A stretch of DNA of 63,885 nt, the filler included, from Globobulimina sp. (Eukaryota), in NCBI GenBank assembly GCA_003354225.1. It is 32 parts of 32 records of this genome, joined end to end, with 100 filler letters (N's around TTAATTAATTAA, not from the genome) between each part and the next. Parts side by side here need not be neighbours in the genome. Positions count along the whole stretch, not along the records: positions 22,010 to 23,909 come from PIVH01010772.1; 31 more parts are not named here. The stretch is one strand, 5' to 3'. The position numbers and the translations under genes were made by a program. The notes under the pieces were generated by a model. That model had not been told where the DNA came from, ran no database searches, and worked only from the letters and a program-made list of their open reading frames with translations. This document shows positions 22,010 to 59,872 of this stretch, one piece after another (within the stretch, counting starts at the first letter, position 1; each line of letters opens with the position of its first letter).

Positions 22010-23696
22010 GTTCACAGAGCACAGCATCTATTGGATATGGAACAATCACAGGAAACAGCATATTATAAACTTTTATTGTTAGGCACTGGCCATGTCGGAA
22101 AATCAACAATTTGGAAGCAATTGTTAGATATTTATGACACAGAAGAAAAGAAAATTGACGTGAAAAATATTTACGATTCAATATTGAAGTCGTTTTGCAA
22201 TTTTCTAAACGAAAATGTTGACGCAACTGATTATACGCACGCTATATTGAAACAAAAAATAAATAATGACCAAATATTTGATACGGTCGAATATTTTTTA
22301 TCAAATTGCAATAATATATTAGAGTTAGACCAAGTCGTTGCATCCAAAATAACCGCCATATGGCATCATGAATTCTTTGTTAATGCATGGAAAAATCGAA
22401 GGAATGTTGGTTCCACAGAATCATTAGAATATTTTATAGATAATTTAGACAGAATAGCATCAGACAATTATATCGCAAGCAAACAAGATGACATATTATC
22501 AGCCACTGCAACCACAGGGATTGCGGAGCGAGAGATGGTTATAAATAATATTGCATTTAAAGTATCTGACACCGGCGGCCAACGCAGTGAAAGAAGTAAA
22601 TGGATTCATGCTTTCGAATGTGTTGATGTTGTATTATTTGTTGCTTCCTTGAACCATTTTGATCAAATATTATATGAGGACGAAAATATAAATGCAATGG
22701 AAGAACAACTCAATTTATTTCAATGTGTTTTGTGTTCAAAATATTTACGAAATTCAAAGCATATTTTATTGTTAACGGGAACGGATTTATTGAAAAGAAA
22801 GATTATTGATAATAAACAACGGATTTATAAGATGGAAGAAGCTGCAAACTCCGGAAACATTATGGATGGAGGGGAGAACGATGAAGATTATTATCAAGAA
22901 TGTGTACAATTTATCACAAATGAATTCAAGGTACAACTTATCACAAACTTCTATACAAATTGATTACAAATGATATAACAAACAGGCAATATACAATATG
23001 AATAGTGACGACATAGATGTGTACACTTTAAATGCTTCCAACAAAGAAGAAATTGAAAATATATTCGATGTTATTGCTGACAATGTAAAAAGTACTATTC
23101 CAGTAAAACAAAATGGATTGTTAGGCAATGATAAATGGAGTATGATGTATAGAAATCATGAAGGAATAGAAAGAAGATCAATAGTACAACATTTTTGTAT
23201 TGTGTTTTTAGTGATATTTGCGTTGGCTTTGTTGTTAGTATTTGTTCCTTATGATATTATGTCTTATATTGTGTTTGGAGTTGCTATTTTATATTGTTTA
23301 GCGATTTGGATTTCAAATTGTGGGCATGGATGTAATACGGCGTTGATATGGATTGTTTCGGTTATTAGTTTGTTATGGATGGTATTTGCATGTATTCAAA
23401 TAGTGCTTATTCAAACAACATCAGAAAGTGATTATGATTCAAATTGGGATTTGGTATTATATTTATTGGCACCAATTGTTATACTAATTGGATATAATTG
23501 CATAGTGTTAATGTTTGTGATTTATTATTATAAATATTTGATGTGGTCACTTGTATGGATGGGTCTTGCAATGTTAACAAGTGGTTTGGCGTTGAATATT
23601 ACAGTTGTTTGGGTGGTTGGAATTGGATTAATTTGCTTAGTATTAATTGTTCCATTTTTGACATATGCTTATTTTAAATGCATTCCGTATAGGTAA
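22010..23696 (+). CDS. Divergent heterotrimeric G-protein alpha subunit fused to a C-terminal, roughly 6-TM domain (two exons)
   Basis: KLLLLGTGHVGKST and DTGGQRSERSKWIHAF; phase-0 GT-AG intron 22931-22985 joins in frame to the G5/alpha-5 region and on into the TM helices. Confidence 0.8.
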
Positions 23697-24011
23697 TTAC
23701 ACGAAGTTCAAAGAAAATTATTTTATATAATAAATCTAAAACAAGCTTGTGTCGTTTAAGAGTGAGAGCCAGAGCCGAGGCCATCAGAGCCATTAGGGTT
23801 TTTGCTTTTAGTTAATTTCTTCAATGAACGCTTTGATAATTGAAGAAAAAAAAACTTTTGTCATTTAGAAACATAACATTTTGCTTTCGTCATGGCACTC
23901 AGCGAATTANNNNNNNNNNNNNNNNNNNNNNNNNNNNNNNNNNNNNNNNNNNNTTAATTAATTAANNNNNNNNNNNNNNNNNNNNNNNNNNNNNNNNNNN
24001 NNNNNNNNNTT

Positions 24012-24854
24012 CGTACTATTATTACAGGAACAGGTAGTTATATTCCTACCCGAAAGATTCTCAATAGAGATTTTCTTAAGAATGAATTTTATGATGCCGA
24101 AGGAAATAAATTTGAAGCTCCAACAGAGGAAATCATAACTAAATTTGAAGAAATAACTGATATCAGGGAAAGAAGGTATGTACCTGATGAGTTGGTTACA
24201 TCGGATATAGCTTTTTATGCAGCTGAAGAGGCTATTAAATCAGCAGAAATTGATAAAGAGACTATTGATTACATTATTGTTGCTCATAATTTTGGGGATG
24301 TTAAAGCAGATAACAGAAGGTCGGATTTTGTGCCAAGTATTGCTGCAAGAGTAAAGTATAAACTTGCTATTGAAAATCCTGGAACGATAGCATATGACGT
24401 TCCTTTTGGCTGTCCTGGATGGTTGCAAGGTATGATACAGGCTGATTATTACATTAAGTCCGGTGATGCAAAAACCGTTTTGATAATCGGTTCAGAAACT
24501 CTTTCACGGATTTCTGATCCACACGACAGAGATTCTATGTTGTACGCTGATGGGGCAGGTGCTACCATTCTTGAAGCCAGAAAAACATCAGAGGACATAG
24601 GTGTACTATCCCATGCTAGCAGGTCTGACACCATTAAGCATGCATATATGTTATGGATGGGTAAATCACATAATCCAAACTATGTTGGTAGTGAGTTATT
24701 TCTGAAAATGAATGGACGTAAGTTATATGAGTATGCCTTAAATACTGTTCCTCTTGTTGTTAAAGAAAGCCTTGAAAAAGCTAAGTTACTACTTAATGAT
24801 GTAAGTAAACCTCCACAATTGACTGCTTTAGGACAAGCTTATAATACATATTGA
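24012..24854 (+). CDS. fabH: Bacteroidota-type 3-oxoacyl-ACP synthase III, truncated at about 24810
   Basis: ITGTGSYIP, IRERRY, FGCPGW (catalytic Cys), YADGAGA, MNGRKLYEYAL; the HQAN and GN motifs are missing. Confidence 0.85.
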   Translation, partial: RTIITGTGSYIPTRKILNRDFLKNEFYDAEGNKFEAPTEEIITKFEEITDIRERRYVPDELVTSDIAFYAAEEAIKSAEIDKETIDYIIVAHNFGDVKADNRRSDFVPSIAARVKYKLAIENPGTIAYDVPFGCPGWLQGMIQADYYIKSGDAKTVLIIGSETLSRISDPHDRDSMLYADGAGATILEARKTSEDIGVLSHASRSDTIKHAYMLWMGKSHNPNYVGSELFLKMNGRKLYEYALNTVPLVVKESLEKAKLLLNDVSKPPQLTALGQAYNTY

Positions 24855-36196: not shown

Positions 36197-37905
36197 TCAA
36201 AATGGCTTATCTTTGACAATTGCAACTTTATCACAACGCACCAAACAATAAATGAGCAAGAAACATAAGATGAAGGCAACAAATATCAGTCCATTGCTCC
36301 CGATGCGTCCAATGATGCCTTTTGCATTCCTCCCGGCAACATTTGCGAGTTCCTCTTCCATGCCTTGTTTAATAATAACATCCAACTTATTTTCCACAAC
36401 AACACTGCTTTCTGCTTTCACCGGATTGAGTTTGGCTTTTTGAGCCTCTTTTTGCTTGGCCAACTTCGCCGCTCTCCGCGCATCACGCGTACTGTTGTCC
36501 GGCAATATTTGCTCAATGGGCCTGACGTCCAACTCATCCATACAAGAAAACGGATACATTGGCTCTCGCAAATAAAACTCATCCGATGGATATTTCTTAT
36601 CGATATCAATTTGCATAAAAGCAATGTTCCGCTGCATCATAAAACAGCGATACCACTTCAATCTGTCCTTTATCACATATTCCCACAACGGGATCAATGA
36701 TTTGATTTTGGTCGGGCCCAGCCACAAATTCTCGATTGTGGCTGCCGCATCCGGCCAGAGCTTGGCGTCCAGCACAGAGCCATCCACATTCTCCGCCCAC
36801 AAGCAAGCCTCGCCGCCAATGATATTCTTTTTTATTGCGGCGTCCATTCGCGCAGTTTTTTGCGGCCACAAATCCGCAAAATAGCGATCACTCAGCGGCT
36901 CATACCACCGATCTACATAAAACGGCGCAGTTATAATCAGCTTATAGCCTGCTTTTAACATTCTTGCTACATTTTTTTGCCACCGACTCTGCCAAACCAT
37001 CAATATCACATTTTTGGGGATCACGCTGCGAACTTTGACATATAAGTCATCCCACGATATCAGCACACGGTCTTCGTACTTTTCAAAGATCTCAAACAAT
37101 TTGGTCACAGTGAACGCATTTATTTTGATGCCAGCCGCTTTTGCACGTCTCCGAATGCCCGAATAGTGGATGGATGCTATCTCATTGTCAATAAACCATT
37201 GGTGTAACTTTGAGTTGTTTTTAAAACATTGGTAGTTTGCTTCGTCGTTGCCAATATGGATATATTTGTCGTTGAAGACTTTGCTTATTTCGTCATACAC
37301 AGCTTCCACCACTTTGAAAGTTAATGGTTTGGAGGGATCCAACACACCGCTCGTGCTGTGATGACAAGTGACATTCAAACAAATATCAAAAGCTTTACAC
37401 CACGAACCAACGTGTCCCGGCACATCAAATTCGGGAATCACGCGAATGCCGCGGATGTTTGCATAATATATAATGTCCTCGATATCGTTTAAAGAGTAGC
37501 GTTCCTGCGCACTGTGACAGCCTTTGTTGTACAAATCGGCCAAATCAAAGTGCTCGAATTTACCAGAAATAGGGAAAGGCCACGATTGGTCATCGACCAT
37601 ATGCCAATGGAACACGTTATATTTTGCAAAAGCAATGCTGTCAATAAAATGTTTGATGAAGAGCACGGGTTGAAAGTGCCGCGCCGTATCTAAGAGAACA
37701 CCTTTTTGTTTTTAACACATTGCATTGAAGTGTTTGCATTGCAACAGATAAATATATATGAATTTAATCAGTAATCAGCAAACCTCTGTATTGGAAATAG
37801 GGGAAATCCAGAATATATCCGACATACTGCAGCTTATAAACATTAATATTGAAGTCATAATAAATGAGTTGAGATAGTGTTTCTATTGCACGTAATGCGC
37901 CAAAT
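36197..37905 (-). CDS. GH20 beta-hexosaminidase with C-terminal TM (5' partial)
   Basis: GVLLDTARHF, NVFHWHMVDDQSWP, RGIRVIPEFDVPGH, HIGNDE, IIGGEACLWAE; intron about 37703-37783. Confidence 0.92.
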
Positions 37906-40004: not shown

Positions 40005-41903
40005 AAGATCTCTGAATACTTCATCGCCGACTTGCCGGGATATCCCGTGGGGCCAAGGACCACCGGGCCTGGTGGCCGGAAACTGGGCGGTTTGGCGGGA
40101 ACTCGCAGTTTGGGCGGCAACAAAGGCAAAAAGATACGCAGTTTTAGCGACCGATTGAAGGGGAAATTCGGTCGGTTTCGCGGCAATTTGTCGGGCAAAC
40201 GAGTGAATTTCAGTGGTCGTACGGTGATATCGCCAGATCCCAATTTAGATCTGGATGAGTTGGGAGTGCCTCGCGATGTTTGTAAGTTGCTCACTTTCGC
40301 GGAGATGGTGACAAAGTTTAACATCGAACTGATGCGCAAAGCCATACTAAATGGACCCGATAAGTATCCCGGCGCTGTGTCGTATGGCCTATGTATCGGA
40401 GTGAATAGATACAAACAAATATCTTTACAGAAAGTGAAATTTCGACTGAATATCGCATTTAATAAATTAAAGTATGGCGATATGGTGGAACGGCACTTGG
40501 TTTATGGAGATCTGGTTTTGTTTAATCGGCAGCCGTCATTGCATAGAGTGAGTATCATGTGCCATCGGGTCAAACCTGTGCCATTTCGCACTTTTCGGTT
40601 CAATCCGTGTTGCTGTAACCCGTACAATGCAGATTTCGACGGCGATGAGATGAACATTCACGCACCGCAGACCTTGATGGCTCGCGCGGAAGCTTCGAGT
40701 TTGATGAATGTGACAAAGAATTTCTGTGCTCCCAAGTCTGCAGATCCGCTGGTTGTGCCTTTGCAGGATATTATAACTTCCACTTATTTGTTGACATTGA
40801 AGCGCGTATTTTTGGATAAGACTGCGGTGCAGCAACTGATTGGATTTATGGATAATTGTTGCATTAAATATAAATATGTCATGCCATTGCCTGCCATCTT
40901 GAAACCTGTTCGCTTATGGACCGGCAAACAAATATTTAGCATGATACTGAAACCGAATGAGGATGAAAATGAACATTGGCCCGTCATCAATTTGGAGACC
41001 GCAGCTCGGAATTATGGAACTGACAAATATATGGATATAAAGGATGGATTTGTGGTGCTCCGCAACAGTGAGTTAATGTGCGGCAACATTGACAAAAACA
41101 TTCTAGGTTCGACTACAAAAGGACTGTTTTTCCGAATGTTACGGGATTATGGCTCTGCGCAGACCGCCCGTTGCATGAATCGGTTAACTAAATTATCGAC
41201 GCGCTTTTTGCAACTTTATGGCTTTAGCATTGGTATTGGCGATGTTACGGCGACGCAGAAATTGAAAAACATACAGAATGGATTAATCAATGCCGGATAT
41301 GACAAATGTAATGATTTTCTGCAAAGTTACAAGAATGGTTCACTGAAAGCGGAGCCCGGCTGCACTTTGGAAGTCACGTTGGAATCTAAAATGAATACAA
41401 CTTTGTCGCAAATCCGAGAGGATGCCGGCAAGCAATGCATCAAAAACCTGTCCTATTATCATAATGCTCCATTGATTATGGCTGAATGTGGCAGCAAAGG
41501 CAGCAAAATAAACATATCGCAGATGGTGGCATGTGTGGGACAACAAACTGTCGGCGGTTCGCGCGTAAAAAACCAATTTATACATCGCACATTGCCACAT
41601 TTCACGATTGAAAATAATCGGCGTGCAAAAGCAAAAGGTTTTGTCGAAAACTCATTTTTTACCGGCATCACTGCCACGGAGTTTTTCTTCCATACTATGG
41701 GCGGTAGGGAGGGTTTGGTGGACACCGCAGTTAAAACTGCGACGACCGGATATATGCAACGGAGGTTAATGAAAAACATCGAAGACGTCCAAATCGAGTA
41801 CGATTTCACAGTCCGAAACTGCAAAAAGCAAATCGTACAATTCTTTTTTGGACACGATGGCATTGACCCAATGCACTGCGAATCCAAGAAGAATGTGGTT
41901 AAT
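40005..41903 (+). CDS. RPC1: RNA polymerase III largest subunit (internal fragment)
   Basis: RLKGKFGRFRGNLSGKRVNFSGRTVISPDPNL, NADFDGDEMN, FFFHTMGGREGLVDTAVKTA. Confidence 0.92.
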
Positions 41904-44002: not shown

Positions 44003-45901
44003 GCGGCAATCGAGCTCAGCGAGGAGTCCCTGAACAAATTTCAGAGACTGCCACAAAACAACACTTACCTCTTTACTGTGCATCGCTAGACATACGCAAG
44101 GCATTTGATACTGTGTGGCGCAAAGGATTGCTCTTCAAATTGCACCACCACTTTGATATACCAATTAATATCTGCAAGACCATAAAAGCCATATATGACA
44201 ATTCCCATTCGGCGATACGAGATATCCCGTTTATAACAGAAATGTTCTTATTACATAATGGCGTATTGCAAGGCTCCGTACTCAGTCCCATTATATTTGC
44301 TGCCTTCATTAATGATATGATAAACACCCTGCAAGCCTCTGGAAATGGCGCCACTTCCCCTGATATAAATAAATTAATCGCCTGCATTTTCTACGCCGAT
44401 GATGTCGTGTTGTTGGCGAATTCCATTGACAAACTTTCGGCGCTCCTAAATATTTGCGAGCAGCACAGTAAAGACTGGGCGTACACTTTCAACGCCAACA
44501 AATGCAAAACGATGATTTTTAATGATCCAGACATACTGCAAAACAATACCAACCATTATAGCACTGCACAAAAACAAATTATTACCCACGAATACCACAC
44601 TGCACTGACACGAATAAACCAAAAAGAAGCGCCAATGGTGATAATCCAACGCCCCACAAACCACACAGTTATGGCAGTAAACATTGATGGCCAGATCTGC
44701 ACCTATAACAACGACGAAATACCACAAGACATCCTTAATAATTTCATCCAACACTGCAACTATTATAAAAACAAAATCGCCAACAAACCATACCACATCA
44801 TATGGAAACAAATAATACGCGATGATAGCTGGGCGATATCCAAAATGCATCACATGTGTCTAATGTATGGCAAACCATTGCAGATGGTGTCCCATCTACG
44901 CTATCTAGGTGCTCACCTTTGTTCGTATGACATTGACAACCTAGTATCCAGCAGCTGTACCAATGCGGTATTTCTAAATAAACTTGATCAGAAAGCGAGA
45001 GTGCTCAGCCATTTAGACTTTAACCATAGTTTTATTTCACTAAGTGACAAAATACGCATTTTAAAAACCTCCTTGCTGGTTTACACAGAGATATTCGCTC
45101 AAGTTTTAGATTGCAAAGCAATAAACCTAGTCTCCGCCCTTGAAAAACAGATAAAAGTCATTCACAAACAAACACAAATCAAAAATTTCAGATTCGACCA
45201 ATTCTCCATCTTTTCAGGCATCCCTTCACCGTCAGAAAGATGGGTGGTTCTGAAACTTGCCTTCTATTGGAAATTAACACAAAACGACCCCATTTCCTAT
45301 ATGCATATATGGAGCAGTTTGCCAAACATACTCAATTATACATTATATAAACAATACCACGATCTCAAAACCAAATGGCTCCCAAACACAATCCAATTGA
45401 TTGAAGGCATTCCTGTTAACACTGATATATTTGAAACTGTTACGGGTCCCTCAGAATTGCGCCCAATTATTGTGAAAAATCAACACAAAAAACTGGTAAA
45501 TACATTCCATGATTATCATCCCCTCAAAGTTCTCGAGCACCATCTCTCTGACTATAAGGCGATGAATACCTATGAGCTCCCTGACTTAGACGATTTCGTC
45601 AAAGCCCGCATGATACCGCTCTACCGAGAACTATTCTATTTTTATAATCAAAAACGAAATTTCTGCGAACTCTGCGCCAAAGCCACAACCATCCCAATTG
45701 AAACCCACCTTTGTATCCAATGTCCGGTCCTAAGCAACTTCCGCTATGTTTATTGGAATCATGCACGTGCAGGATTTGCCAGATTAGGTTCCAAAATCAA
45801 TAAATTCCATAACCAAATCTTCATGCAGCGCATAATCGAGTTCTGTGAGGATGTGCGAGTCGACAATGATATGCTATGGAGAATCATCTGTGGTGCCAAC
45901 T
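44003..45901 (+). mobile_element. Non-LTR retrotransposon ORF2 fragment (RT plus CCHC)
   Basis: LDIRKAFDTV, GVLQGSVLSP, FYADD, RYLG, CELC...HLCIQC. Confidence 0.92.
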
Positions 45902-48000: not shown

Positions 48001-49707
48001 AGTTGCTGCATAATGAGCACATTTATGTATATTATATATAATTTTATTAATATTCATATCTTTTGTTAAACAAACTTTATTCGCATTATCTATGTTCAAT
48101 GAAGTATCTCCTTTTTTATTCTTCCAACATTTGTCACTGTTGACTGCATCCAATAAATCAAATAATTGTATCTTTGTCGGATTGTTTCCAAATATTTCAA
48201 CTGCACATAATTCCAATCTAGATACATTTTGATTATCTAATAACTGTTTTATAATCAACATCAATATTCCATTAACTCCGAGCAATTCTTTTCCGATCAA
48301 AGTAAATGTTTTACCCGATCCTCTCCCACCATATCCAATTAAAATACAATTACATCCACATAATACATGTTCAATCATTGGCGGTACCATCACATCAAAT
48401 ATTTCCTTATTATCTGCATCAACACCAAATATTTCATTAAATTCATATTCATTGCATATTTTATTTATTGTATTTCGAATTTTATTTCCTGCAGCAAGTC
48501 GAACAGATATTTTTCGTGGCTCCCAAGGCATTAAAGGACGAACACGACAATATTTTCCAAGATGATTCATTCTCAACTTTTTATTTGAAGTATTTATGAC
48601 AAAAATGTTCAATTTGTAGAATCCCAAAATACTAAATATGATATCATTCGGTATATTATTCATTTTGCTGCAACGACAATAACCAAATACAATTAATTTT
48701 TGTTTATCTGAAACGGGAACCTTCGGAATGCCATCAAAAAAGTCCAACGTATATTGATTTGCTTTTGCGTTTGTTGCAGAAATGGATAATGTGAATAATA
48801 CAGAAATAAATGTTTTTGCAGTAATAAAGGGATATAATATTCTCCTCATACCATTACCGGCAACTTTTAATCGACCATTTTTCATCCATTCATGCAATAT
48901 ACTTTTTATTTGAGATAAACCAATGTTAATTGTTCCTGCTTCAAATCTGCGACATAATAACTGTTCGGCACTAACATTGGCTTTGTACTTTGCAGTAAAC
49001 GCAGTTTCGCCGTTACTTCCCGCACAATCTACAAAGACAAGATGCGATGTAATAAACTGGTGCTGTGTTATAGTGATAATATATGCAATATGGCCACGTG
49101 ATGATTCTATGTTTGTTCCAGTTGAAGCACAATGCGATGCAGAATGTGCATATGTTATCTTTGAATATGCATCGTTTTCATCAGTAATAATAACTTTGAT
49201 TGCTTTTTTGCTGTCCATTGTGAGGGCTCTTCTTTTTTCACACCAAGCTTTAATTTGATTTGCTTCATTAAATAAATCAAATAGCCATATTTTGGCGTGG
49301 CCACATCCAAATGCTTCAATTGCAGATAGTTCTACTTTTTGGATATTTTTTTGTTTTGTTAAATGCGTTAATGTCATTTGTAATATTCCAGTAATATTTG
49401 CTTTTGGTTTTCCTATTATTGAATAAGTTTTGCCGGATGCGGTTTGACCGAACGCCATTAATACAGAATCATATCCTTTCATGACATTATTAATCATTGG
49501 AGGCACAATTGAATCAAAACATTGTCTGTTGCTTGATTGTGAGTTAAATATTTGATTGAACTCATATTTATTGCAAACGTTTTTGGATTTATTCGTTATA
49601 TTTTCTATTGTTTTACCATAAATTGATAATGATATTTTTGTTGATTCATTTGACATCAAAGGTTGAATACGTGCATAGCTTTCAAAATTTAATGTTAGGC
49701 CATTCAT
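48001..49707 (-). CDS. Kinesin-like protein with two tandem motor domains (3' partial)
   Basis: Motor 1: YARIQP, FGQTASGKT, NIESSRGH, VDCAGS. Motor 2: CRVRPL, YGGRGSGKT. Single uninterrupted frame. Confidence 0.85.
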
Positions 49708-49999
49708 ATATCATTTAAGCAGAGTTTTTTTGAATGACAATTTCATATACAAGTTCGCATTATAAATATAATCAAATTTGTTGTACATGTTTGTCGTTTA
49801 AAATCTGAGATCATCGATCACAAAATCTTTTTAAAGGTAACTAGCAATCCATTGAGTTAATAGAGTAGAGATTATACACAATATAATTATAGCAATATAN
49901 NNNNNNNNNNNNNNNNNNNNNNNNNNNNNNNNNNNNNNNNNNNTTAATTAATTAANNNNNNNNNNNNNNNNNNNNNNNNNNNNNNNNNNNNNNNNNNNN

Positions 50000-57128: not shown

Positions 57129-58459
57129 AACGCGTCTAAGACTTTTAGTTGACGAGTTGACGAATAATTAACCCAAAAGTACTAATTGACAGTATTTAAT
57201 TATTTTATAAGTTTTATATTGCAAAAACGCAAACTTCCCACATCAAGTAAACACATTAAACACTAAGTCACTAAAAGAAGGAGCAAAGCTGGCCGGTCCA
57301 TTATTTATCATCCAAAAAATCCATCTCTTCACAGGCAATATAAGTGAAATTGAGCTGGAAATTCTGGATTATTCCATATAATTATTCGACATCATGATGA
57401 CTTATAAACATTATTCGGTTGCAGAACAAAGGCTAACAATCTGCCTTTGTTCTGCATGTTGACTGTACTCTTTTTCTTAAACTTAAAGATAATAAATTGA
57501 AAAAACACACAATCAGCTCAACAAAAACTATTCTGAAAAAGTGTACAAACAAAAAGGTAATAGTTGATTTTTTCCGTCTACAAGCAATATTTAACAGACT
57601 AAACGAATAAATACTGAATTATGTCACCGTATTTATATGTAAGAAACATATTAAAAGTAAAAAGTTTATAACAAATGAATCACTGCTACGGCAACAAGAT
57701 GGTTCTTAAGCTTTTAATTCGCAGTGATTTGAATGCCATGAATAATTTGGACGGGAATTTGTTTTTGTGTATGTTGCGAGTTTTCCATCATTTTGCCAAT
57801 GCCAGATTTAATTAAAATAATATTTTTGATAAAAGTTAATATCCATAAAAATACAGTTAATACGAATGCAGATGCAAAATACCATGCGATTNNNNNNNNN
57901 NNNNNNNNNNNNNNNNNNNNNNNNNNNNNNNNNNNTTAATTAATTAANNNNNNNNNNNNNNNNNNNNNNNNNNNNNNNNNNNNNNNNNNNNTCCAAGGTA
58001 TTTATGATTACGTTGTTTTACAGATTGTTACTGTATTTAGCAATTTAATATTCACAGATTGTTTGTAACGGATTAAAAATACGACTATTTAAGAAAACGA
58101 GAGCAAAACATTTAAGGTTTGGTAATTTGCATGAAATTTTTGTGTGGCATATTTGATTTCTATGTAAACAGAAAAATGGTGGCATATTTGATGCAAAATA
58201 GCCAAGAATTTTGTGATGGATGGGTTAATAGCGCAGATTAAGTAATTCTATTTCATATTATTTTTTATTAATGTTGCTAGTTTAATATATGTGGCTCGTG
58301 TGTTAGTTTTTGTGTTTGTGGTTCGTGTGTTTTTTGCGTGCATTTTTTGTTGTCTGTTATAAATATTATCCGAAGCTCTGCTCACTGTTCCTCTCTTTAA
58401 TTACAATTAATAACTCTCCCTTTCGTTATAATGCAACTTAATTTCACTCAAGTACTAGT

Positions 58460-59872
58460 ATGAGCCGCTTCCACTCAAACATGTCAGCAACACAAACAAC
58501 GAAAGAAATCAATCCATTAATAATGAACAACAAACAAAAAACCATTGCTTATTCCTCATGCATTGATGACATGACATCGATTGCAATCCATCATCAATCC
58601 TCTTCAATGTCAAAGTCATCAAACTCTTCGTGTTCGTCAAGATCCTCCATTCTACTCAACGAGAACACCAACTCCAATCACAATACGACTGAGCATCACA
58701 AAAAAATATATCTCCACAAAAGCATGTCAACACAAATGCATATAAACAATAACCACCGTAACGATTCAAGTTCGTTCAAAACGTGCCTCGGTCGTATTTT
58801 ATTGCAATGCGAGCCCTGTACAAAGAAACTAAAAGTCGCATATTATGTGATATTATGCAATGCAGTGATTGTGTGCATATTGCTTATAATCTCCCGCATA
58901 TTCAGCCATCCCTCGCTGAGCCCCAACAAAAACAACTTATTCCATTCCGATATATTTACGTCAAACAGCGCGCCGTTGCTATTGACCGCCAATATCATTA
59001 TGATGATGTCCTACTCTTTGGAGAATTTCTTAGCTCTCCGCATCTGTTTAGGTATTGGCTGTCTGTGTTTTGCGTTATGGGGCTTGACCAACACACCAAT
59101 CTTGTTAGACACTGCCATGTTTAACACAGTGATGATGCTCTTGAATCTGTCGCATGCAATGAAGCTGTCCTACCATCGGCGACATATATTTTTCAAGCCG
59201 TGCTGGGAGCAGATTTATATGAGTGTATTCAAGGGATATTTGAACAGAGTGGATTTCAACAAATTGGTGGACATTTCCTATGTGAGGAAGGTGAAAAAAG
59301 GCGAAATATTTAAGACTAAAGGCGATGAAGTGACCAGTTTGTGCATCTTAGTAAGTGGACGAATCTCAGTGGTGCGGCAAGTGGAATTTGAGCCGGTTTC
59401 TCGGATTAAAAGCAATCAAAGACTGCGGAAAGTAAAATCAGCGGGACATGTTCAGCAAAGTAAGGAAAGTAAAATGAGTGATGATGTAAAGGAATATGAT
59501 AATGGCTACGACAGTGATATTGAATATTTTTTACGGAATCCAAATTTTGTGAATTTATGCCATAAGAATCAATTTATTGAAGCGCCGCAATGGGTGGCGG
59601 CCGATTTGAGACCGGATGGGGATCGGTTTACGGTGTCTTTTGTGGCTGTGGATGACTGTGAATATATTAAATGGCCGCGGGAGAATTTGATTGAACTGAT
59701 TGAGGATAATGGGAACATGAAACATGCGCTAGCCGGCGTCCTCGGGCTGCAGACCGCGAGGGCTTTGTTGAAATCGAGAGAGTATAATAAAATGCAGCAA
59801 TGTATGGAGACGAGCCGCAAAAACACTGTTTCAAACGAAGATAATGACAATGCGAATACTAGTGACATATGA
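58460..59872 (+). CDS. Popeye-domain (POPDC/BVES-like) membrane protein
   Basis: TM cluster ANIIMMMSY..FLALR..FALWG..FN..LNLSH, then LCILVSGRISV, FIEAPQW, FTVSFVA. Confidence 0.8.
   Translation: MSRFHSNMSATQTTKEINPLIMNNKQKTIAYSSCIDDMTSIAIHHQSSSMSKSSNSSCSSRSSILLNENTNSNHNTTEHHKKIYLHKSMSTQMHINNNHRNDSSSFKTCLGRILLQCEPCTKKLKVAYYVILCNAVIVCILLIISRIFSHPSLSPNKNNLFHSDIFTSNSAPLLLTANIIMMMSYSLENFLALRICLGIGCLCFALWGLTNTPILLDTAMFNTVMMLLNLSHAMKLSYHRRHIFFKPCWEQIYMSVFKGYLNRVDFNKLVDISYVRKVKKGEIFKTKGDEVTSLCILVSGRISVVRQVEFEPVSRIKSNQRLRKVKSAGHVQQSKESKMSDDVKEYDNGYDSDIEYFLRNPNFVNLCHKNQFIEAPQWVAADLRPDGDRFTVSFVAVDDCEYIKWPRENLIELIEDNGNMKHALAGVLGLQTARALLKSREYNKMQQCMETSRKNTVSNEDNDNANTSDI

Follow-up and report, generated by a model that had tools for sequence, protein, structure and literature searches.

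A divergent G-alpha continued past alpha5 into a six-helix membrane domain by a single spliced gene in the Globobulimina sp. assembly

G-alpha subunits are textbook peripheral membrane proteins that end in a free alpha5 C-terminus, the helix through which receptors act. Plant extra-large G proteins (XLG) combine a G-alpha-like domain lying off the catalytic consensus with an extra region that is not G-alpha and is N-terminal and soluble. Engineered fusions that link G-protein-coupled receptors (GPCRs) to G-alpha, made for pharmacology and for structure work, join the C-terminal tail of the receptor to the N-terminus of G-alpha and leave alpha5 free. Among natural proteins, the seven-transmembrane (7TM) RGS proteins are represented by AtRGS1 of Arabidopsis and by 28 putative members in Naegleria fowleri (PMC9283941, PMC3971589). 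Here we describe a gene at 22010-23696 of a 63,885-nucleotide window (the whole stretch of DNA analysed, filler included) from the Globobulimina sp. assembly GCA_003354225.1, in which a divergent G-alpha continues past alpha5 into a membrane domain of its own.

We put the probability of this architecture, a G-alpha joined to its own six-helix membrane domain in a single spliced gene, at roughly 0.95. Where canonical G-alpha has a free alpha5 C-terminus, the chain here runs on for 201 more residues and six membrane helices, and a Pro-containing linker stands in place of the receptor-inserting end of alpha5. The likeness to XLG is one of general layout rather than of compared sequences: both join an atypical G-alpha to an extra region, but the extension here is C-terminal and is a polytopic membrane domain. 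With the engineered GPCR-G-alpha fusions, as generally described, the protein has in common a single chain, a 1:1 stoichiometry and a receptor-like membrane domain, whereas the order of the parts is the opposite and those constructs are man-made, with seven helices of a known family. The 7TM-RGS proteins of protists and plants likewise unite, by nature, a polytopic membrane domain and one component of the G-protein cycle in the same chain, but their RGS (GTPase-activating) box is C-terminal to seven helices, whereas here G-alpha itself is N-terminal to six. Nor can an RGS domain supply the arginine finger that is missing from the protein described here.

The gene lies on its own 1900-nucleotide (nt) contig (PIVH01010772.1; 22010-23909, 31% G+C). 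The window is a chain of 32 unlinked contigs of 1898-1901 nt each, sorted by length with N44-TTAATTAATTAA-N44 spacers between them, and neighbouring sequence therefore gives no context for the gene. Exon 1 (22010-22930, plus strand; 307 codons, P0001) encodes the part of G-alpha that extends from the end of the N-terminal helix to G4, taking in the helical domain and switches I-III, and ends AAT GAA TTC AAG at 22930 (...FITNEFK). An earlier note on this DNA began the feature at 22010, and although that coordinate is exact, it is a contig edge inside the gene and not a gene start, the gene being cut at its 5' end. A phase-0 intron of 55 nt with GT..AG ends and 25% G+C (22931-22985, plus strand) separates exon 1 from exon 2 (22986-23693, plus strand; 236 codons, P0002), which begins AIYNMNSDD, continues the frame of exon 1 and closes with a TAA stop at 23694-23696 (plus strand). 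Read unspliced, the frame hits a stop at 22961-22963, 10 codons into the intron.

Contigs from four public runs (X2, X6, X7 and X8, from three studies) were aligned to the G-alpha contig, and each of the four has a record that skips exactly the 55 nt between the GT..AG ends. X2 record 1 (1613 nt) joins 22046-22928 to 22984-23713 and holds G-alpha and the entire membrane part in one molecule. X6 record 9 spans 22872 to 23712 and X7 record 17 spans 22782 to 23284, while X8 records 21 and 22, overlapping at 23051-23079, jointly cover 22838-23210. Beyond the contig edge at 22010, the gene is extended upstream by 93 nt in X6 record 8 and by 119 nt in X7 record 15; at the other end, X2 record 1 and X6 record 9 stop at 23713 and 23712, ~17 nt beyond the stop codon. 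The X6 and X7 sequences belong to a relative with 90-95% identity. The kinds of run are recorded only as '?' or 'RNA?', which leaves cDNA as the likelier nature of the joined form and intron-less DNA as the other; the exon junction is supported on either reading.

These records bear out the phase-0 intron that the earlier note had placed after FITNEFK, which is skipped exactly in 4/4 runs. The note had also assigned to exon 2 the G5/alpha5 end that the first open reading frame lacks, and had read the rest as about six transmembrane helices; both stand, since the start of exon 2 aligns with beta6/alpha5 of a relative (P0004, below) and 201 open codons follow, with six helices by hydropathy and in two AlphaFold2 runs. 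Three ways in which this reading might have failed had been named: transcripts ending after alpha5, a chimeric join near 23090-23150, and a stop missed through sequencing error. None of them materialised. The X2 and X6 records run past the stop, the suspected stretch is bridged in 4/4 runs, and no difference breaks the frame, the only indel being a net 3 nt in X6. We conclude that the gene is real and single, that two of its exons can be seen on the contig, and that its spliced message encodes a divergent heterotrimeric-type G-alpha continuing past alpha5. The single indel is a deletion at 23309-23312 in the X6 relative, at the cytosolic end of the second membrane helix, and it keeps the frame.

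The chain after alpha5 behaves as coding sequence. From residue 36 of exon 2 it runs for 201 codons with no in-frame stop, while the two remaining frames hold 22 and 13 stops, and 0/20000 shuffles of the same stretch were free of stops (mean 16.9 stops). Synonymous changes were counted on 40 of the 80 single-letter differences in the run contigs, with a chance expectation of about 0.2. They make up 6/11 in the membrane part (binomial p 0.016) and 12/25 in exon 1 (0.19 expected; binomial p 0.001), a similar excess that points to similar, moderate constraint on both.

Past alpha5, an 11-residue Pro-containing linker and then a basic juxtamembrane helix running into the first transmembrane helix (TM1) occupy 23091-23180 (plus strand; AlphaFold2 helix 47-85). 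The six-helix membrane domain itself (23181-23681, plus strand) is delimited by hydropathy, which has six peaks after alpha5, by the AlphaFold2 helices and by 19 invariant columns. Its helices, all on the plus strand, are TM1 (23181-23240), TM2 (23256-23321), TM3 (23337-23423), TM4 (23442-23525), TM5 (23538-23594) and TM6 (23601-23681). In P0002 numbering the two AlphaFold2 runs give helices at 47-85, 91-112, 118-146, 153-180, 185-203 and 206-232. Confidence was too weak for a fold call, with a predicted local distance difference test score (pLDDT) of 55.1 and a predicted template-modelling score (pTM) of 0.33 from alignment A1, and 58.5 and 0.44 from A2; in the linker region, residues 38-63, pLDDT is below 50. 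Basic residues precede TM1 and recur in loop 2-3 and the tail. In the relatives, loops 1-2 and 5-6 carry acidic residues, as for the most part does loop 3-4, and 3/4 sequences have an NxS/T sequon at loop 5-6 (NIT here). This charge pattern and the sequon fit an in-to-in topology.

The membrane domain constitutes a six-helix family that belongs to no known family in Pfam, NCBIfam or the PDB. Pfam has no match in P0002, P0005 or P0006 and only the G-alpha match in P0004; the PDB gave none by sequence or by profile; and in NCBIfam the only match, at 0.028, was for 1/4 members. In the ESM Atlas the best score for the membrane part was 0.77, under lead level. The loop between TM2 and TM3 (23313-23327) reads C-G-H-G-C here, with basic residues in the three relatives. 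This motif may be a metal or redox site peculiar to the lineage, or may have no significance.

The same order of domains recurs elsewhere. An HMMER scan with exon 2 across 1.84 billion representative proteins gave four matches, one of which (P0003) was dismissed as a repetitive junk frame. The other three, P0004, P0005 and P0006, are true relatives, all of them fragments with switch I and the P-loop outside the fragment. In P0004 (365 residues), PF00503 covers residues 1-161 (profile 211-330/333, E 1.3e-26), and the same six-helix domain follows. P0005 (345 residues) has the same layout, its G-alpha fragment falling below the Pfam cut-off (41.1 against 48.8 bits), and P0006 (203 residues) is the membrane domain alone, possibly a fragment. 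In BLASTP, P0002 and P0004 align at E 1e-15 and 21% identity over residues 8-231, colinear from beta6 to TM6; P0004 and P0005 are colinear at E 5e-71 and 39% identity; and 57 residues of exon 1 align with the N-terminal part of P0004 at 37% identity. Since the G-alpha and membrane domain stand in the same order in two distant proteins, this is a small family and no accident of a single genome.

At only 22-27% identity the four sequences still share 19 invariant columns. Among them, TM2 opens with D-x-x-S-Y and TM4 with W-x-W-x-x-Y-x-x-x-P, TM5 contains W-x-L-x-x-x-G, and TM6 has both W-x-x-G (at its start) and P-F. In the predicted topology, 9/19 of the invariant residues (D, S, Y, W, Y, P, G, W and G) lie at the outer ends of TM2, TM4, TM5 and TM6. 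All three fused sequences also have a Pro shortly after the buried part of alpha5, from which a long helix leads to TM1.

Wider searches added little to the family. A profile search with the relatives' alignment A1 gave no longer relatives, the near relatives being P0004 only, and scans of genome contigs and viral contigs found no relative. Exon 1 has 15 longer homologous proteins, and none of the 3/15 examined (P0011, P0013 and P0019) has the membrane domain; the C-terminal hydrophobic tail of P0019 differs from it and is possibly a gene-model fusion. The one locus from the metagenome scan, L001 (a contig of 3507 nt), was judged a chance match. It is bacterial, with a membrane-protein gene that looks MATE-like by eye and stands there in three tandem copies or fragments, and it shares the word 'IDIVSY.VFG' with TM1-TM2 of the six-helix domain. 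P0013 (676 residues, from a public run assembly) is an otherwise canonical G-alpha (PF00503, E 1.3e-120) split in two stretches by an insert of ~335 residues that directly follows KWVHC of switch II; Pfam has nothing matching this insert, whose boundaries look intein-like by eye.

Exon 1 is plainly a G-alpha. In Pfam it matches PF00503 in one stretch (profile 12-298/333, E 5.8e-62, 210.2 bits against a cut-off of 48.8). The best PDB chain is 6ne6_A, 'Galpha7' of Naegleria fowleri (E 5.7e-41, residues 10-281), followed by mammalian G-alpha 13, q and i at E about 1e-35 to 1e-40. What exon 1 lacks is the last ~35 positions of the PF00503 profile, and these are supplied by the first 35 residues of exon 2, which encode beta6, G5 and a shortened alpha5 (22986-23090, plus strand; alpha5 helix at residues 20-35 of P0002). 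The assignment comes from alignment with P0004 and P0005 and from AlphaFold2, whose secondary structure starts exon 2 with two short strands and the helix 20-35; these residues are colinear with the stretch of P0004 that reaches Pfam position 330/333 and matches the alpha5 of a transducin chimera. G5 reads LNAS in place of TCAT, against ICAL/TCAT in the relatives and transducin.

Compared with canonical G-alpha such as Naegleria fowleri G-alpha7 (6ne6), the protein retains the Ras-like and helical domains, with the whole-domain PF00503 match that includes the latter, GxGxxGKS/T, the switch-I Thr, DxxGQ and beta6/alpha5. It departs from it in the arginine finger, the acidic partner of that finger in the P-loop and the N and K of NKxD, all replaced here, and in having no free alpha5 end. 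The P-loop (22082-22108, plus strand), GTGHVGKST against GAGDSGKST in 6ne6_A, keeps its GKS/T core with His28 at the usual acidic residue. Switch I (22496-22522, plus strand), LSATATTGI, forms a gap-free block with RARIKTTGL of 6ne6_A, in which the Mg-binding Thr is kept and Ala165 aligns with the second Arg of RARIKTTG, the arginine-finger position. In switch II/G3 (22568-22594, plus strand; DTGGQRSER, aligned to 6ne6_A) the catalytic Gln is kept. G4 (22766-22792, plus strand) is degenerate, with TGTD for NKxD when aligned to LLLNKHDLF of 6ne6_A, so that the Asp alone remains; the relatives have NFMD (P0004) and TFKD (P0005), and thus the Lys is absent and the Asp kept in all three fused sequences.

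A G-alpha without the arginine finger hydrolyses GTP much more slowly, and guanine binding depends in part on the N and K of NKxD. With these residues gone, we infer from the motifs that this G-alpha hydrolyses GTP slowly and probably holds nucleotide weakly, exchanging it quickly. The arginine finger and most of NKxD are missing and alpha5 is shortened and followed by a Pro, so this is no textbook receptor-coupled G-alpha. In PMC9283941 the acidic P-loop residue is described as contacting the arginine finger and is implicated in nucleotide exchange. Both partners of that contact are replaced together here (Ala165 and His28).

How the two halves might work together is best approached through alpha5. 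G-alpha would face the cytosol, with both ends of the six-helix bundle cytosolic, and the protein would then be a permanently membrane-embedded switch with its alpha5 end towards the membrane, as in receptor-bound G-alpha. The bundle would be coupled to the nucleotide pocket via alpha5, which in ordinary G proteins is the lever for receptors. We prefer such coupling because the tether runs through the very helix on which receptors act and because the bundle conserves specific residues, and we regard functional coupling of bundle to nucleotide state as an even bet. The membrane module might be a sensor, an effector or an anchor. In the direction we slightly favour, the bundle would act upstream, like a receptor carried in the same chain, and would have a conserved pocket at its outer face, but the reverse, in which G-alpha would gate the bundle as its effector, is almost as likely. 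A fuller version of the upstream direction, in which one polypeptide is both receptor and transducer, the bundle sensing a ligand, an ion or the state of the membrane at the outer-face pocket and pulling alpha5 to drive exchange without a separate GPCR, seems to us unlikely. A bolder variant would place a seventh helix in the N-terminus beyond the contig, and the protein may then be a 7TM protein with the whole of G-alpha in its first cytosolic loop.

A receptor-like bundle invites comparison with known 7TM folds. In a wide fold search with the second AlphaFold2 model (pLDDT 58), a microbial rhodopsin, 7bmh_B, came first (Z 9.8, root-mean-square deviation 3.7, 141 residues aligned); rhodopsin-like entries scored Z 8-9.8, and GPR156, a GABA-B-type receptor complex and Ste2 scored Z 7-8, all below the Z of about 13 that helical bundles can attain merely by sharing a common arrangement. 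Microbial rhodopsins and other 7TM bundles have seven helices, whereas six are predicted here, and they have no sequence match to the domain. Nor does the last helix here carry a mid-membrane Lys, the only invariant Lys being at the cytosolic end of TM6. As a lead only, the models suggest that the membrane domain may be a 7TM-like bundle minus one helix.

The simplest competitor to coupling is that the six helices only hold a G-alpha paralogue at a particular membrane, replacing the N-terminal lipid anchors, while its logic stays that of a free or self-activating G-alpha. The alpha5 end of G-alpha normally faces the membrane, which makes a C-terminal anchor geometrically easy; the linker is predicted with low confidence, and the loops are very short, with little evident surface for binding a ligand. 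Yet one helix would be enough for an anchor, and six have kept 19 invariant columns, with Asp, Ser, Tyr, Trp and Pro motifs among them, at 22-27% identity, in a domain that stays colinear with G-alpha across 21-39% identity. We consider a purely passive anchor possible but doubtful. The degenerate motifs raise a different prospect, that G-alpha has stopped cycling nucleotide and is now a cytosolic platform on which G-beta-gamma, RGS-like or other proteins dock, with the activity residing in the six-helix domain. The changes of the arginine finger to Ala, the P-loop acidic residue to His, NKxD to TGTD and TCAT to LNAS all speak for such a scaffold, as does the absence of the NKxD Lys from P0004 (NFMD) and P0005 (TFKD) as well. 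They sit, however, beside intact residues for phosphate binding, Mg binding and positioning of the water (GKS/T, the switch-I Thr and the Gln of DxxGQ), a G4 Asp kept in all three sequences, and the synonymous excess in exon 1 (12/25 against 0.19 expected), and we judge a non-cycling scaffold improbable. That the fusion is an artefact, whether a chimeric assembly, a missed stop or two genes read as one, would be easiest to believe of a short contig (1900 nt) in a very fragmented assembly with a bacterial-looking FabH fragment among its contigs. But the joined frame across 23090-23150 recurs, with no difference that breaks it, in independent assemblies of four runs from three studies, the domain order is the same in two distant proteins, and the two parts are similar in G+C and third-position G+C (0.32/0.28 and 0.30/0.24), which makes an artefact very improbable.

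Several points weigh against a fused G-alpha coupled to its bundle, and they concern different parts of that reading. The predicted models are of low confidence (pLDDT 55 and 58), and the link through residues 38-63 could be floppy. A dead pseudo-GTPase would explain equally well why the arginine finger and the N and K of NKxD are gone. The synonymous excess is moderate, and 5/11 of the listed changes in the membrane part alter the residue. Four sequences are known in total, of which the three relatives are fragments. The contigs come from runs whose kind is not on record and are compatible with a minor, shorter isoform ending after alpha5, which may exist alongside the full form. Finally, the N-terminus lies off the contig and may hold lipidation signals or a further membrane helix.

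The earlier note had called the protein a membrane-integral G-alpha, which is supported by the recurrence of the same order of parts in two distant proteins; its label of a possible 'one-component signalling protein' would hold if the membrane domain is a sensor. It had also known of no described G-alpha built in this way. The literature searched agrees, with no natural fusion of G-alpha to a membrane domain found there, including in passages of PMC9283941, PMC3971589 and PMC12716839, but the main comparative survey and supplementary files lay outside that coverage, and we therefore call the G-alpha plus six-helix architecture undescribed only provisionally. For a subunit held to be peripheral, an alpha5 that continues, in a natural, expressed and conserved protein, into a dedicated polytopic domain is a different wiring of a well-studied switch, and it provides a ready-made 1:1 system in which to study how alpha5 movement governs nucleotide exchange. 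With it come an unannotated six-helix membrane family and a naturally occurring G-alpha without the arginine finger, and the set of G-protein architectures known from poorly sampled eukaryotes is evidently not complete. Should the six helices turn out to be just an anchor, what remains is an oddity produced by domain shuffling.

Downstream of the gene, ~95 nt 3' of the stop, a short element at 23791-23867 is present in many otherwise unrelated contigs of X2, X6 and X7, with summed depths of 219, 188 and 59. The flanks beyond 23788-23794 are all different, and several contigs end at 23821-23824. On the minus strand the element looks like a common leader of ~34 nt ending ...CCCTAATG and joined to different messages, in the manner of a spliced leader; in the G-alpha contig the next bases are GC instead of GT. 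Neither Rfam nor the tRNA check matched it, the window has a single copy, and a text search by its letters did not find its sequence in papers. Rfam, tRNA and motif checks of the contig and the window gave nothing except one tRNA elsewhere in the window.

The source of the G-alpha gene is an AT-rich eukaryote with short GT-AG introns, and it probably uses the standard stop codons, because the 543 codons of the gene contain no in-frame stop. Ten long open frames, on 10/32 contigs of the window, were scanned against Pfam, with a family match in 6/10. The scan found a kinesin (48001-49710, minus strand), Rpb1 (40005-41903), a reverse transcriptase (44005-45900), a protein combining POPDC and cNMP-binding domains (58442-59869) and a GH20 hydrolase (36200-37711, minus strand). 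The FabH fragment of bacterial appearance (24012-24851) lies on the contig placed next to that of G-alpha.

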